Of a stretch of DNA of 64,000 bases, positions 2,339 through 36,986 are shown piece by piece. The translations under genes and the position numbers were made by a program. Position 1 is the first letter of the stretch. The number at the start of each line of letters is the position of its first letter. The stretch is taken from NCBI RefSeq assembly GCF_053078305.1, contig NZ_CP166879.1. One strand, 5' to 3'. Under the pieces are notes generated by a model. That model searched no databases, had not been told where the DNA came from, and was given only the letters and a program-made list of their open reading frames with translations.

Positions 2339-3271
2339 TTAGTTTTCCAGTACTCGTGCGCCCGCCGTATCCAGCCGGCAAATATGAACAAAACCTTCCT
2401 GATTTTGCAGGTAGTTCTTACCCAACCAGTCGGCAACGCGCTGGGCGGTATCCGGCTTGTCACACAGAGCGAACAAGGTCGGGCCGGAGCCGGAGATACC
2501 GCTCGCTACCGCGCCGATTTCCGCGACCGCCTGCCGCGCCTGCCGGAAGCCAGGCAGTAACCGTTCACGGTAGGGTTCTGCGATAACATCTTTCATCAGC
2601 TTCGCGGCAAGCTCAGGCTGACGGGAATAGCAGGCGTGAATGAAGCCTGCCAGATGTCGCCCGTGCGCAATGCAATCCTGGCGGCGATACTGCGCCGGTA
2701 AAATAGCCCGGGCTTCTGCCGTCGAGACTTTAATCCCCGGATACGCCAGCACCCACAGCCACTCATCAAACCCTGGCACTTGCTGGCTGATGATGTCGTT
2801 TTCTTCGATCATCAACTGCATACCACCAAGAAAACACGGTGCCACGTTGTCGTAATGAATGCTGCCGGAGATTCGTCCTTCCAGCTCGCCCATCAAAGCC
2901 AGCAAACGAGTGTCATTAAGCGGCTTGCCACAGTGTTCATTCATCGCCATCAGCGCCGCGACCACCGAACAGGCGCTGGAGCCTAAGCCCGAACCGATCG
3001 GCATATTCTTTTCCAGAGTCATCGCCACTGGAATTTGCTTCCCAAGCTCCTGGCAAAAACGCTCCCAGCACTGATAAACGATATTTTCCCGTGGTTCTGA
3101 CGGCAGCTTATCGGCAAAGCGTCCGAGGTTGTTGAGACTGAATGTCTCTGCCGCCTCAACCGTTACTACATCTCCGAGCAATGCACCATCAACGGGTGTC
3201 ACCGCCGCCCCGAGCACATCAAACCCGACGCTCATATTGGCACTGGAAGCCGGGGCATAAACTTTAACCAT
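2339..3271 (-). CDS. thrB: Homoserine kinase
   Basis: 310-aa ORF recognised as ThrB ([21 protein letters not shown]...); directly follows thrA. Confidence 0.97.
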
Positions 3272-6094: not shown

Positions 6095-6781
6095 TTATTT
6101 GGTGATATTTTTTTCAATATCATGCAGCAAACGGTGCAACATTGCCGTGTCTCGTTGCTCTAAAAGCCCCAGGCGTTGTTGTAACCAGTCGACCAGTTTT
6201 ATGTCATCTGCCACTGCCAGAGTCGTCAGCAATGCCATGGCTCGTTCGCGTAAAGCTTGCAGTTGATGTTGGTCTGCCGTTGTGTCACTTTTCGTCGGTT
6301 GTTGTATTAATGTTGCTAATTGATAGCAATAGACCATCACCGCCTGCCCAAGATTGAGCGAAGGATAATCCGCCACCATCGGCACACCAGTAAGAACGTC
6401 AGCCAACGCTAACTCTTCGTTAGTCAGCCCGGAATCTTCGCGACCAAACACCAGCGCGGCATGGCTCATCCATGAAGATTTTTCCTCTAACAGCGGCACC
6501 AGTTCTACTGGCGTGGCGTAGTAATGATATTTCGCCCGACTGCGTGCAGTGGTGGCGACAGTGAAATCGACATCGTGTAACGATTCAGCCAGCGTCGGGA
6601 AAACTTTAATATTATCAATAATATCACCAGATCCATGTGCGACCCAGCGAGTGGCTGGCTCCAGATGTGCCTGACTATCGACAATCCGCAGTTCGCTAAA
6701 CCCCATCGTTTTCATTGCCCGCGCCGCTGCCCCAATATTTTCTGCTCTGGCGGGTGCGACCAGAATAATCGTTATACGCAT
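6095..6781 (-). CDS. lasT: SpoU-family tRNA/rRNA methyltransferase
   Basis: ORF 6095..6802; start placed at the internal Met giving MRITIILVAPARAENIGAAARAMKTMGF (228 aa). Confidence 0.9.
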   Translation of the reverse strand: MRITIILVAPARAENIGAAARAMKTMGFSELRIVDSQAHLEPATRWVAHGSGDIIDNIKVFPTLAESLHDVDFTVATTARSRAKYHYYATPVELVPLLEEKSSWMSHAALVFGREDSGLTNEELALADVLTGVPMVADYPSLNLGQAVMVYCYQLATLIQQPTKSDTTADQHQLQALRERAMALLTTLAVADDIKLVDWLQQRLGLLEQRDTAMLHRLLHDIEKNITK

Positions 6782-7180
6782 ATTGCCACTCTTCTTGACC
6801 AAATGACCGCGAACAGGGTGATCACTGTCAACTTATTACGCGGTGCGAATTTACAAATCCTTAACGTAAGTCGCAGAAAAAGCCCTTTACTTAGCTTAAA
6901 AAAGGCTAAACTATTTCCTGACTGTACTAACGGTTGAATTGTTAAAAAATGCTACATATCCTTCTGTTTACTTAGGATAATTTTATAAAAAATAAATCTC
7001 GACAATTGGATTCACCACGTTTATTAGTTGTATGATGCAACTAGTTGGATTATTAAAATAATGTGACGAAAGCTAGCATTTAGATACGATGATTTCATCA
7101 AACTGTTAACGTGCTACAATTGAACTTGATATATGTCAACGAAGCGTAGTTTTATTGGGTGTCCGGCCCCTCTTAGCCTG

Positions 7181-7321
7181 TTATGTTGCTGTTAAAATGG
7201 TTAGGATGACAGCCGTTTTTGACACTGTCGGGTCCTGAGGGAAAGTACCCACGACCAAGCTAATGATGTTGTTGACGTTGATGGAAAGTGCATCAAGAAC
7301 GCAATTACGTACTTTAGTCAT
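7181..7321 (-). CDS. yjjY: Small protein YjjY (46 aa)
   Basis: Hand translation of the minus strand: MTKVRNCVLDALSINVNNIISLVVGTFPQDPTVSKTAVILTILTAT; below the 60-aa ORF-track cutoff; sits between arcA and lasT. Confidence 0.7.
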   Translation of the reverse strand: MTKVRNCVLDALSINVNNIISLVVGTFPQDPTVSKTAVILTILTAT

Positions 7322-7416
7322 GTTACGCCGATCATGTTAATTTGCAGCATGCATCAGGCAGGTCAGGGACTTTTGTACTTCCTGTTTCGATTTAGTTGGC
7401 AATTTAGGTAGCAAAC

Positions 7417-8133
7417 ATGCAGACCCCGCACATTCTTATCGTTGAAGACGAGTTGGTAACACGCAACACGTTGAAAAGTATTTTCGAAGCGGAAGGCTAT
7501 GATGTTTTCGAAGCGACAGATGGCGCGGAAATGCATCAGATCCTCTCTGAATATGACATCAACCTGGTGATCATGGATATCAATCTGCCGGGTAAGAACG
7601 GTCTTCTGTTAGCGCGTGAACTGCGCGAGCAGGCGAATGTTGCGTTGATGTTCCTGACTGGCCGTGACAACGAAGTCGATAAAATTCTCGGCCTCGAAAT
7701 CGGTGCAGATGACTACATCACCAAACCGTTCAACCCGCGTGAACTGACGATTCGTGCACGCAACCTGCTGTCCCGTACCATGAATCTGGGTACTGTCAGC
7801 GAAGAACGTCGTAGCGTTGAAAGCTACAAGTTCAATGGTTGGGAACTGGACATCAACAGCCGTTCGTTGATCGGCCCTGATGGCGAGCAGTACAAGCTGC
7901 CGCGCAGCGAGTTCCGCGCCATGCTTCACTTCTGTGAAAACCCAGGCAAAATTCAGTCCCGTGCTGAACTGCTGAAGAAAATGACCGGCCGTGAGCTGAA
8001 ACCACACGACCGTACTGTAGACGTGACGATCCGCCGTATTCGTAAACATTTCGAATCTACGCCGGATACGCCGGAAATCATCGCCACCATTCACGGTGAA
8101 GGTTATCGCTTCTGCGGTGATCTGGAAGATTAA
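7417..8133 (+). CDS. arcA: Aerobic respiration control response regulator ArcA
   Basis: 238-aa ORF recognised as ArcA ([41 protein letters not shown]...). Confidence 0.97.
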
Positions 8134-33563: not shown

Positions 33564-34343
33564 TTAGTAGCTGCTGGCGCTCTTACCGTCGCCGTGACCC
33601 AGCGCTTTCAGCAGGCTTGCCAGCAGGCTGGAAGCACCAAAGCGGTAGTGACGCGCATCAGCCCAGTCAGCACCGAACAGTTCATCTGCGATGGCGAGAT
33701 ATTTCTGCGCATCTTCCGCAGTACGCACGCCGCCCGCCGGTTTGAAACCAACGGTTTTTTCTACGCCCATATCACGGATCACTTCCATCATGATGCGCGC
33801 GCTTTCCGGCGTCGCGTTCACAGCCACTTTACCGGTAGAGGTTTTGATGAAGTCCGCACCCGCTTTGATGGAGATTTCAGACGCTTTACGGATCAGCGCT
33901 TCGTCTTTCAGTTCGCCGGTTTCGATGATCACTTTCAGCAGTACATTCGCTGCCGCGCAAGCCTCTTTACAGGCTTTCACAAGGTCAAAACCAACCTGCT
34001 CGTTACCCGCCATCAGCGCGCGGTACGGGAACACAACGTCAACTTCATCAGCACCGTAGGCGATTGCCGCACGGGTTTCTGCCAGCGCGATTTCGATGTC
34101 GTCGTTACCGTGTGGGAAGTTGGTTACCGTAGCAATACGGATTTCCGGGGTGCCCTGCTCTTTCAGTGTTTTGCGAGCAATCGGGATAAAGCGAGGATAG
34201 ATACAGATAGCGGCGGTATTGCCGACCGGGGTTTTGGCCTGATGACACAGAGCAATTACTTTCTCGTCGGTGTCGTCGTCATTCAGGGTGGTCAGGTCCA
34301 TCAATTTCAGTGCACGCAGGCTGCTTGCTTTCAGATCAGTCAT
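33564..34343 (-). CDS. deoC: Deoxyribose-phosphate aldolase DeoC
   Basis: ORF 33564..34367; start placed at [29 protein letters not shown] (259 aa). Confidence 0.97.
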
Positions 34344-34387
34344 TTCATTCTCCTGGCTTGTCGCCAATAAAATTCACCTTGCGAGTT

Positions 34388-34403
34388 TGTTAGTATTCTA
34401 ACA
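34388..34403. promoter_or_regulatory. DeoR operator, promoter-proximal (O2-like, at deoP2)
   Basis: Palindrome TGTTAGTATTCTAACA about 45 bp upstream of the deoC start; one position off the exact TGTTAGAATTCTAACA palindrome. Confidence 0.7.
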
Positions 34404-34600
34404 TCTACTCCGCAACACACTTCGATATACATCACAATTAAGGAAATCTACTTACAAGTTTGCATCACTGTAATGCGATCTGGTTCAAATAATTCACTTT
34501 CAAATGAATGCGTCAGTGGTGGCAAACGCATCAGGATCAAAGTGAACATCACGAAACTTCTTACAATGGCGCATCACCTTCGGCATAAAAGGAAAAGAAG

Positions 34601-36151
34601 ATGCCCACTTCTCATGAAAATGCACTGCAACAACGTTGCCAGCAAATTGTCACCAGCCCAGTGCTTAGCCCGGAGCAGAAGCGCCATTTTCTGGCACTGG
34701 AAGCAGAAAACAATCTGCCTTACCCACAGCTTCCTGCCGAAGCCCGCCGCGCGCTGGATGAAGGTGTAATCTGCGATATGTTTGAAGGTCATGCGCCGTA
34801 CAAACCGCGCTATGTCTTACCCGATTACGCCCGTTTTCTGGCGAACGGTTCCGAATGGCTGGAGCTGGAAGGCGCGAAAGATCTTGATGACGCACTCTCT
34901 CTGCTGACCATTCTTTACCACCACGTACCGTCGGTCACATCGATGCCGGTCTACCTGGGGCAACTGGATGCGTTGTTGCAACCGTATGTTAGAATTCTAA
35001 CACAAGACGAGATCGATGTTCGAATAAAACGTTTCTGGCGTTACCTCGACAGAACCCTGCCAGACGCCTTTATGCACGCCAATATCGGCCCGTCTGATTC
35101 GCCCATTACCCGCGCGATCTTACGTGCAGACGCAGAGTTGAAGCAGGTTTCACCGAACCTGACTTTTATCTACGATCCTGAAATCACCCCTGATGACCTG
35201 CTGCTGGAAGTGGCGAAGAACATCTGTGAATGTAGCAAACCGCACATCGCCAACGGTCCGGTGCATGATAAAATTTTCACAAAAGGGGGCTACGGGATTG
35301 TGAGCTGTTACAACTCACTGCCGCTGGCGGGTGGTGGCAGCACGCTGGTACGCCTTAACCTGAAAGCCATTGTCGAGCGCAGCGAATCGCTGGATGACTT
35401 CTTTACGCGCACTCTACCGCACTACTGCCAGCAGCAGATCGCCATCATCGATGCGCGGTGTGAATTCCTCTATCAACAATCACACTTCTTTGAGAATAGC
35501 TTCCTGGTGAAAGAAGGGCTGATTAACCCTGAACGTTTTGTGCCAATGTTTGGCATGTATGGGCTGGCGGAAGCGGTTAACTTGCTGTGTGAGAAAGAAG
35601 GGATTGCCGCGCGCTACGGTAAAGAAGCCGCCGCAAATGAAGTGGGTTATCGCATCAGCGCGCAACTGGCGGAGTTTGTCGCCAATACCCCCGTGAAATA
35701 TGGCTGGCAAAAACGCGCCATGTTACACGCACAGTCGGGGATCAGTTCCGATATCGGCACCACGCCGGGCGCGCGTTTGCCGTATGGCGATGAGCCAGAT
35801 CCGATCACCCATCTGCAAACTGTCGCCCCGCATCATGCTTATTATTATTCCGGCATCAGCGACATTCTGACGCTCGACGAAACCATCAAACGTAACCCGC
35901 AGGCACTGGTACAGCTTTGCCTCGGTGCCTTTAAAGCCGGAATGCGTGAATTTACCGCCAATGTCAGCGGTAACGATCTGGTTCGCGTTACCGGTTATAT
36001 GGTGCGTTTGTCGGATTTAGAAAAATATCGCGCCGAAGGTTCACGCACCAACACCACCTGGCTGGGCGAAGAAGCCGCACGCAACACTCGTATTCTGGAA
36101 CGCCAGCCGCGCGTGATAAGCCATGAACAGCAGATGCGCTTTAGTCAGTAA
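34601..36151 (+). CDS. yjjI: YjjI, predicted glycyl-radical enzyme-like protein (DUF3029)
   Basis: 516-aa ORF with a C-terminal RVTGY glycyl-radical-type motif; divergent from deoC; followed by an activase gene. Confidence 0.9.
34987..35002. promoter_or_regulatory. DeoR operator, distal (O1-like, at deoP1), lying inside the yjjI coding sequence
   Basis: Exact palindrome TGTTAGAATTCTAACA; centre is 599 bp from the centre of the 34388-34403 site. Confidence 0.75.
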
Positions 36152-36986
36152 GATTATCCCCTTCTCCTGCGTTGACGGGCCAGGCAGTCGTCTGGCTCTG
36201 TTTTTGCAGGGCTGCAATCTGCGCTGCAAAAACTGTCACAATCCGTGGACGATGGGACGTTGCAATGACTGTGGGGAGTGCGTGCCACAGTGTCCGCATC
36301 AGGCGTTGCAGATTGTTGACGGCAAAGTGGTGTGGAACGCTGTGGTCTGCGAGCAATGTGATACCTGCCTGAAGAGGTGTCCGCAACATGCCACGCCAAT
36401 GGCGCAATCCATGAGCGTGGATGAGGTGCTTAGCCATATCCGCAAAGCGGTGCTGTTTATTGAAGGGATAACGGTAAGCGGCGGCGAAGCCACGACCCAA
36501 CTGCCGTTTGTAGTGGCGCTGTTTACTGCCATCAAAAACGATCCGCAACTGTGCCATCTCACCTGCCTCGTGGACAGTAACGGTATGTTGAGCGAAACCG
36601 GCTGGGAAAAATTGCTCCCGGTGTGCGACGGCGCAATGCTCGATCTCAAAGCGTGGGGGAGCGAATGTCATCAACAATTAACCGGACGCGATAATCAGCA
36701 GATTAAGCGCAGCATCTGTTTGCTGGCAGAGCGCGGCAAGCTGGCGGAACTGCGTTTGCTGGTAATCCCTGGCCAGGTGGATTATTTGCAACACATCGAA
36801 GAACTGGCGGTGTTTATCAAGGGACTTGGCGATGTTCCGGTACGCCTGAACGCGTTTCATGCCCACGGCGTGTATGGCGAGGCGCAAAGCTGGGCGAGCG
36901 CCACGCCGGAAGACGTTGAGCCGTTGGCTGATGCGTTACGGGAGCGCGGGGTGAGCCGGTTAATATTTCCGGCGCTGTATTTGTGA
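36123..36986 (+). CDS. yjjW: YjjW, glycyl-radical enzyme activating protein (radical SAM)
   Basis: 287-aa ORF with CNLRCKNC radical-SAM cysteine triad and additional Cys clusters; overlaps the yjjI 3' end by 29 bp. Confidence 0.9.

Follow-up and report, generated by a model that had tools for sequence, protein, structure and literature searches.

The deo-yjjI locus raises the question of how the regulatory DNA of one operon can be accommodated within the reading frame of a divergent neighbor, and what this imposes on either. In the window (the whole 64-kb stretch of DNA analyzed here), the initial annotation had proposed that a promoter-operator of the deo operon overlies the 5' coding part of yjjI, a glycyl-radical enzyme gene, such that both are constrained. 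The present data uphold this proposal, as yjjI codons 2-128 are coding-like and the synonymous sites of the superimposed element are frozen. From the sequence comparisons described below, the palindromes in question can be taken with high confidence to be the classical DeoR operators of the E. coli deoCABD operon.

Genes of the locus

The locus is that of the E. coli chromosome: positions 34200-35400 are matched at 95% identity or more in 5423 of 5426 complete E. coli genomes, and the RefSeq annotation of a 99.8% identical locus places deoB-deoA-deoC and yjjI-yjjW on opposite strands. The genes are as follows.

33564-34343, minus strand: deoC, deoxyribose-phosphate aldolase, first gene of deoCABD, with its ATG at 34343 (ORF list, RefSeq, TIGR00126 at 294.7 bits)
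34601-36151, plus strand: yjjI, YjjI-family glycine radical enzyme, 516 aa (ORF list; RefSeq call identical)
36123-36986, plus strand: yjjW, YjjW-family glycine radical enzyme activase (ORF list, RefSeq, TIGR04041)

The DeoC, YjjI, and YjjW family matches all exceed their cut-offs (TIGR00126, TIGR04040, and TIGR04041, respectively), with YjjI scoring 784 bits against a cut-off of 498.3 and YjjW 396.5 bits against a cut-off of 250.2. In addition to its profile match, the YjjI translation contains the glycyl-radical motif VRVTGY, and the adjacent gene encodes the YjjW activase, which together assign it to the YjjI family of glycine radical enzymes. The two genes overlap by 29 nt (36123-36151) in different frames. 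Across 77 species, codons 2-128 of yjjI accumulate 3.3, 2.0, and 15.5 substitution steps at codon positions 1, 2, and 3, as does the remainder of the gene, and because this segment evolves like coding sequence, the internal operator O1 does not lie within a mis-annotated leader. Public records of yjjI disagree on its length, as seen among protein hits P0004, P0011, P0076, and P0111: some E. coli entries give 402, 452, or 476 aa, and one 574-aa product joins YjjI-like and DeoC Pfam domains, presumably a mis-call spanning the divergent intergenic region.

Two DeoR operators at the published spacing

The two palindromes listed by the initial annotation occupy the following positions.

34388-34403: DeoR operator O2, TGTTAGTATTCTAACA (deo strand: TGTTAGAATACTAACA), one mismatch to the perfect palindrome
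34987-35002: DeoR operator O1, TGTTAGAATTCTAACA, perfect palindrome, exact match

The proximal palindrome had been placed about 45 bp from deoC, and the end of O2 indeed lies 45 bp upstream of the ATG; the exact distal one had been placed 599 bp away and about 390 bp into yjjI, for which the measured values are 599 bp, start to start (34987 - 34388), and 386 nt. O2 and O1 are the only matches to the palindrome with three or fewer mismatches in the 64-kb window, where shuffled sequence gives a mean of 0.23, and the chance expectation for an exact 16-mer is approximately 1.5e-5. O1 extends from the third base of yjjI codon 129 to codon 134, reading taT GTT AGA ATT CTA ACA.

DeoR palindromes have been published as TGTTAGAA-TACTAACA and TGTTAGAA-TTCTAACA (PMC5326754); the reverse complement of 34388-34403 is the first of these, the published O2, and 34987-35002 is the second, the published O1. 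The distance between deoP1 and deoP2 has been given as 599 bp, with the pair locked by DeoR looping (PMC3334521; PMC8053113), O1 and O2 have been described as lying ~600 bp apart with one operator per tandem promoter (PMC8053113), and one deoCABD promoter has been placed "in an upstream gene, yjjI" (PMC6389913, 2019). Comparison with the published deoP1/deoP2 maps, as the initial annotation had suggested, thus finds agreement in both operator sequences, in their spacing, and in the location of a promoter within yjjI. Its recognition of the known deoP2/deoP1 operator arrangement is borne out by these identities, with DeoR looping taken from the literature. O2 is present in all aligned deoC-yjjI intergenic regions, its promoter-distal half being variable.

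Promoters superimposed on the operators

The following elements of the deo promoters can be read from the sequence.

34395-34403, minus strand: predicted extended -10 of deoP2, TGT TAGAAT, within the conserved half of O2; expected start ~34388
34994-35002, minus strand: predicted extended -10 of deoP1, TGT TAGAAT; expected start ~34987
34421-34436: CRP site 1 of deoP2, TGTGATGTATATCGAA on the minus strand, conserved in the intergenic alignment
34474-34489: putative CRP site 2 of deoP2, TTTGAACCAGATCGCA on the minus strand, centered at about -93.5, in a partly conserved intergenic block

At both O1 and O2 the operator overlaps the -10 of its promoter in the sequence, with the starts deduced from the hexamers. 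P1 and P2 look like extended -10 promoters on the basis of these motifs, and a consensus promoter scan called neither of them, since both are without a good -35. The half of O1 and O2 that is invariant across species is TGTTAGAAT on the deo strand, which is this extended -10, and promoter, operator, and codons are therefore superimposed. The center of CRP site 1 falls 40.5 bp from the expected P2 start, as anticipated for deoP2, and the 34474-34489 block is what we take to be CRP-2 of the deoP2 literature. The sequence TGTGATGTATATCGAA has been reported as the CRP ChIP-seq site of the yjjI/deoC intergenic region (PMC4287617).

A third operator within yjjI

The initial annotation listed two operators and missed a third.

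35266-35281: DeoR operator OE, TGATAAAATTTTCACA, 4 mismatches, 279 bp (93 codons) beyond O1

A search allowing up to four mismatches returned five sites in 64 kb, three of them beyond O1 and O2, with OE among the three; the other two, at 3271 and 45215 (4 mismatches each), are at chance level and were set aside. OE extends from the third base of yjjI codon 222 to codon 227 (caT GAT AAA ATT TTC ACA). O1 and OE therefore occupy identical codon phase 93 codons apart, and their spacing is 279 bp in 77 of 77 yjjI genes, a distance fixed because it is set by the reading frame. We take 279 bp to be the exact offset of the classical third site. In the literature, OE lies ~300 bp upstream of O1, and loops among all three sites have been described (PMC8053113). 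The distance from OE to O2 (599 + 279 = 878 bp) fits the published limit for natural looping distances of up to ~900 bp (PMC4217526).

As read from the sequence, two of the three DeoR operators and the whole of deoP1 sit within the yjjI reading frame; O1/P1 and OE fall there because yjjI starts merely 257 bp from deoC. The constraint also runs from protein to DNA, as two of the four departures of OE from the palindrome lie in the codon for Phe226, a residue kept in all orthologues. The 4-mismatch variant of OE is itself conserved, and OE may have a second function besides that of a DeoR site. On the plus strand, this region (35247-35274) reads TGATAAAAT, with an extended -10 that the scan pairs with TCGCCA at 16-bp spacing. 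This TCGCCA-16-TAAAAT combination over OE was the promoter scan's only match, but its -35 varies across species and it was not retained as a promoter call; OE may nonetheless double as a promoter inside yjjI.

These elements allow a model of the locus to be assembled from the published mechanism. O2 would overlap the extended -10 of deoP2 and O1 that of deoP1, with the weaker third operator, OE, another 279 bp upstream. Multimeric DeoR is proposed to bind the 16-bp palindromes and loop the DNA between O1 and O2, OE and O1, or OE and O2, and looped DeoR would keep both deo promoters shut until deoxyribose-5-phosphate frees it. DeoR binding, loop formation, and release upon deoxyribose-5-phosphate have been published for E. 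coli (PMC5326754; PMC8053113).

Synonymous constraint in yjjI genes adjacent to deoC

Conservation was assessed in the best 80 of 295 matches from a genome scan for YjjI, taken as loci and including Escherichia, Salmonella, Citrobacter, Enterobacter, Lelliottia, Kosakonia, Kluyvera, Hafnia, Edwardsiella, and Proteus, among others. The divergent neighbor is deoC in all 80 loci except four from Proteus and two that are cut off upstream of yjjI. The initial annotation had conceded that a palindrome poorly conserved in other enterobacterial yjjI genes would speak against its reading; among these best 80 of 295, all 76 deoC-adjacent loci retain O1 at yjjI nt +386 with no more than two mismatches (0-2), and Proteus has none.

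Seventy-seven deoC-adjacent yjjI genes were then aligned by codon, and substitutions were counted as parsimony steps on a neighbor-joining tree; the mean steps at codon positions 1, 2, and 3 are 2.8, 1.7, and 15.6. Over the whole coding sequence the median 16-nt window takes 106 steps, and the lowest windows rank as follows.

Rank 1: OE, 6 steps
Rank 2: 35025-35040, just upstream of P1, 9 steps
Rank 3: yjjW start overlap, 17 steps
Rank 4: O1, 19 steps

The start of yjjW, as the third most constrained window in yjjI, provides the scan with a positive control inside the gene; its codons are CAT GAA CAG CAG ATG CGC, with CGC in 76 of 76. When third positions are considered, O1 takes 3 steps and OE 4, against a median of 96, and the two rank first and second of 511 six-codon windows. 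Synonymous-site conservation at the palindrome, which the initial annotation had named as the sign of dual constraint, is accordingly highest in the gene at O1. The loss of synonymous change is confined to the elements and has sharp 16-nt edges: third-position steps fall from 29 at codon 128 to 0 at codon 129, and from 16 at codon 221 to 0 at codon 222, with 15-29 such steps in the codons flanking O1 and OE.

Codon usage reflects the same constraint. In O1, GTT is found in 75 of 77 genes, ATT in 77, CTA in 75, and ACA in 77, and in OE, TTC is found in all 77. CTA is a rare leucine codon (2 of the 56 Leu codons of this yjjI), and five of the seven AGA, CTA, ATA, and CGA rare codons of the gene lie within codons 131-151. 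In this alignment, DNA-level selection on the 16-nt operators overrides codon choice and fixes V-R/K-I-L-T and D-K-I-F-T in YjjI. The O1-O2 distance varies between 567 and 675 bp among species (mode 601), which rules out strict helical phasing of the loop; the long loop is therefore not phase-locked.

Natural controls: yjjI away from deoC

Seven yjjI orthologues lack a deoC neighbor, namely four from Proteus, one from Providencia (L083), one from Moellerella (L084), and L082. The DeoR-like palindrome is absent from all seven. Their residues 130-134 read V-G-E/N/S/D-L/Q/Y-T and residues 223-227 read D/S/A-A/G-V/A-F-G/D, encoded by mixed codons (GTG/GTC/GTT, CTC/TTG/CTT, and ACC/ACG/ACT). The element is thus missing and the codons free where adjacency to deoC is lacking, in seven genes that represent one or few independent lineages because all are Morganellaceae. 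Conversely, a metagenomic yjjI orthologue with 77% identity that adjoins deoCABD (L085) has O2, O1, and OE. Since the palindrome is absent from the seven controls and present in L085, the operators track deoC adjacency and not YjjI function.

Alternative explanations for the conservation

The alternative that survives best is that the constraint is mainly that of a promoter, with TGTTAGAAT conserved as the extended -10 of P1 and P2 and DeoR adding little. In its favor, the invariant half of both O1 and O2 is the TGTTAGAAT half, which in O1 changes only in two Edwardsiella TTA variants, whereas the promoter-distal half varies in 22 of 77 genes at O1 and in more species at the non-coding O2. However, conservation of the distal O1 half remains far above background, with nearly all of its changes at one base, the second of codon 131 (R/K/G/I). 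In addition, no deo-strand promoter is known at OE, although no 16-mer of yjjI is better conserved, and this holds over the full length of the site. We therefore regard a promoter-only origin of the constraint as improbable, and the promoter contribution as refining the DeoR operator explanation rather than replacing it.

Conservation could also stem from the residue needs of YjjI (YVRILT and DKIFT), with the likeness to DeoR sites incidental. Tyr129, Val130, Thr134, and Phe226 are in fact conserved in orthologues away from deoC as well. However, the constraint lies at third positions, and the non-adjacent genes use GTG/GTC, CTC/TTG/CTT, ACC/ACG, and TTT; residue 131 is the most variable (R/K/G/I) and changes while the DNA stays near the operator; non-adjacent genes have other residues at 132, 224, 225, and 227; and the sequence recurs as O2 in non-coding DNA. 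An explanation from protein sequence is accordingly very unlikely. It is hardly credible either that the palindromes function at the RNA level, as hairpins in the yjjI mRNA or in a long deoP1 leader, and not as DNA bound by a protein. O1 would be in both transcripts, and a perfect palindrome of 16 nt could fold into a 6-bp stem closed by a 4-nt loop. However, substitutions in one arm (G6 to A, seen in 16 species; A7 to G; G6 to T) are unmatched at pairing positions 10-11 and so uncompensated in the other arm, OE, the site with the highest conservation, is only poorly palindromic, the conserved half is the one that carries the deo-strand extended -10, and DeoR binding and looping at these sites have already been published.

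Other conserved or candidate blocks in yjjI

Adjacent to deoP1, the scan recovered a further element.

35021-35038: conserved block CGAATAAAACGTTTCTGG, yjjI codons 141-146, 15 third-position steps against a median of 96

This block, which ranks second in conservation within the gene, lies at -34 to -51 of the expected deoP1 start, fixes CGA and ATA, both rare codons, and includes the palindrome AAACGTTT; in Proteus, its codons show synonymous variation. An assignment as an UP element was rejected, as the block misfits the consensus by eye and is GC-rich at -47 to -52. It may instead be a candidate factor-binding site. No resemblance to ModE, PurR, or RbsR boxes is claimed. A second block at 35486-35503, TTCTTTGAGAATAGCTTC, spans yjjI codons 296-301 and takes 24 third-position steps against the median of 96; it is not DeoR-like (at least 6 mismatches), and its codons vary in Proteus.

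A CRP ChIP-seq motif, CGTACCGTCGGTCACA, has been reported inside yjjI in ETEC (PMC4287617). It is present here at 34926-34941, yet with 15-26 third-position steps it shows no synonymous constraint and was rejected as a conserved element. The motif is probably incidental, or the ChIP peak may reflect the nearby looped complex.

A candidate yjjI promoter and possible coupling to deo

Within the yjjI-proximal half of the intergenic region, the only conserved blocks are GGATCAAAG (34534-34542) and TACAAT (34562-34567), which together suggest a promoter for yjjI.

34534-34567, plus strand: candidate yjjI promoter, GGATCAAAG (with the FNR half-site ATCAA) and a TACAAT -10

TACAAT implies a start ~41 bp downstream of the ATCAA half-site. 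It has been reported that yjjI is FNR-bound and FNR-activated, with its start site unmapped (PMC3688515), and a candidate promoter with an FNR half-site agrees with yjjI being an FNR target. If located at 34534-34567, the yjjI promoter would lie inside the O1-O2 loop. It and P1 would face each other ~410 bp apart, with deoP1 predicted to fire from ~34987 towards the FNR-type promoter at ~34534-34567; given this direction, deoP1 transcripts would be antisense to the first ~410 nt of yjjI mRNA. DeoR at O1 and OE, in turn, would block the path of RNA polymerase transcribing yjjI. Through this embedding, yjjIW may be coupled to DeoR, deoxyribose-5-phosphate, and antisense transcription from deoP1, and YjjI may act in anaerobic nucleoside or deoxyribose metabolism, a proposal that we consider rather doubtful at present.

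In Enterobacteriaceae and Hafniaceae, yjjIW adjoins deoCABD. The linkage of yjjIW with nucleoside genes hints at a role for YjjI in nucleoside or deoxyribose metabolism, and its conservation is consistent with yjjIW being coupled to deo.

The surroundings of yjjIW in other genomes hold further nucleoside genes. Directly upstream of yjjI and on the same strand, a NupC-family nucleoside transporter gene is found in Moellerella (L084, 2647-3921) and in L082 (2681-3931). In many Enterobacterales, a NupC-family gene follows shortly after yjjW on the other strand, besides the divergent deoCABD; examples are L085 (6425-7702) and, at ~6400-7700, L035, L052, L054, L055, L059, L061, L062, L064, L066, L070, L076, and L077.

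Relation to known systems

DeoR operators are to be expected at this locus, since the deo operators rank among the founding cases of DNA looping in bacteria (Dandanell and Hammer, 1985; Valentin-Hansen et al., 1986; Dandanell et al., 1987; Amouyal et al., 1989; cited via PMC5326754 and PMC8053113). The present sites belong to the same system as E. coli deo O1, O2, and OE, with identical operators, the 599-bp distance, a third site ~300 bp upstream, and the deoC locus in common. A parallel is provided by lac O2 inside lacZ, likewise an auxiliary operator in a coding sequence that loops (through LacI) with a promoter-proximal operator. However, lac O2 lies in the regulated operon's own gene, downstream of the promoter, whereas in the deo case a full promoter and two operators are found inside a divergent, separately regulated neighbor gene. 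The yjjI/yjjW overlap likewise places two selected functions on one stretch of DNA, with local synonymous loss, but there coding sequence and a translation start are laid over coding sequence, while at O1 and OE coding sequence is laid over protein-binding and promoter DNA. The classical deo work reportedly predates the annotation of yjjI and, in the sources consulted, is said to treat the region as upstream regulatory DNA and not as coding.

The arrangement is mostly already known: O1 and O2 are the textbook DeoR pair, to which OE is to be added, and the position of deoP1 in yjjI is already in print (PMC6389913). What is new here is a quantified dual constraint with natural controls, a tidy but incremental advance, along with the proposal that yjjI, too, may be governed by DeoR loops or by antisense transcription from deoP1.

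Implications

The locus provides a very clean natural experiment on dual-use DNA: across Enterobacteriaceae and Hafniaceae, 12 codons in the gene of a neighboring enzyme are frozen by two 16-bp protein-binding sites together with a promoter. These force rare codons and specific residues upon YjjI, and the same codons drift where yjjI lies away from deoC. Scans for synonymous constraint can thus recover known operators at base-pair resolution. A note of caution also follows for work on this gene, as recoding or deleting yjjI may affect deo regulation. The arrangement further offers a testable starting point for asking what the uncharacterized YjjI/YjjW glycyl-radical system does and how it is regulated.
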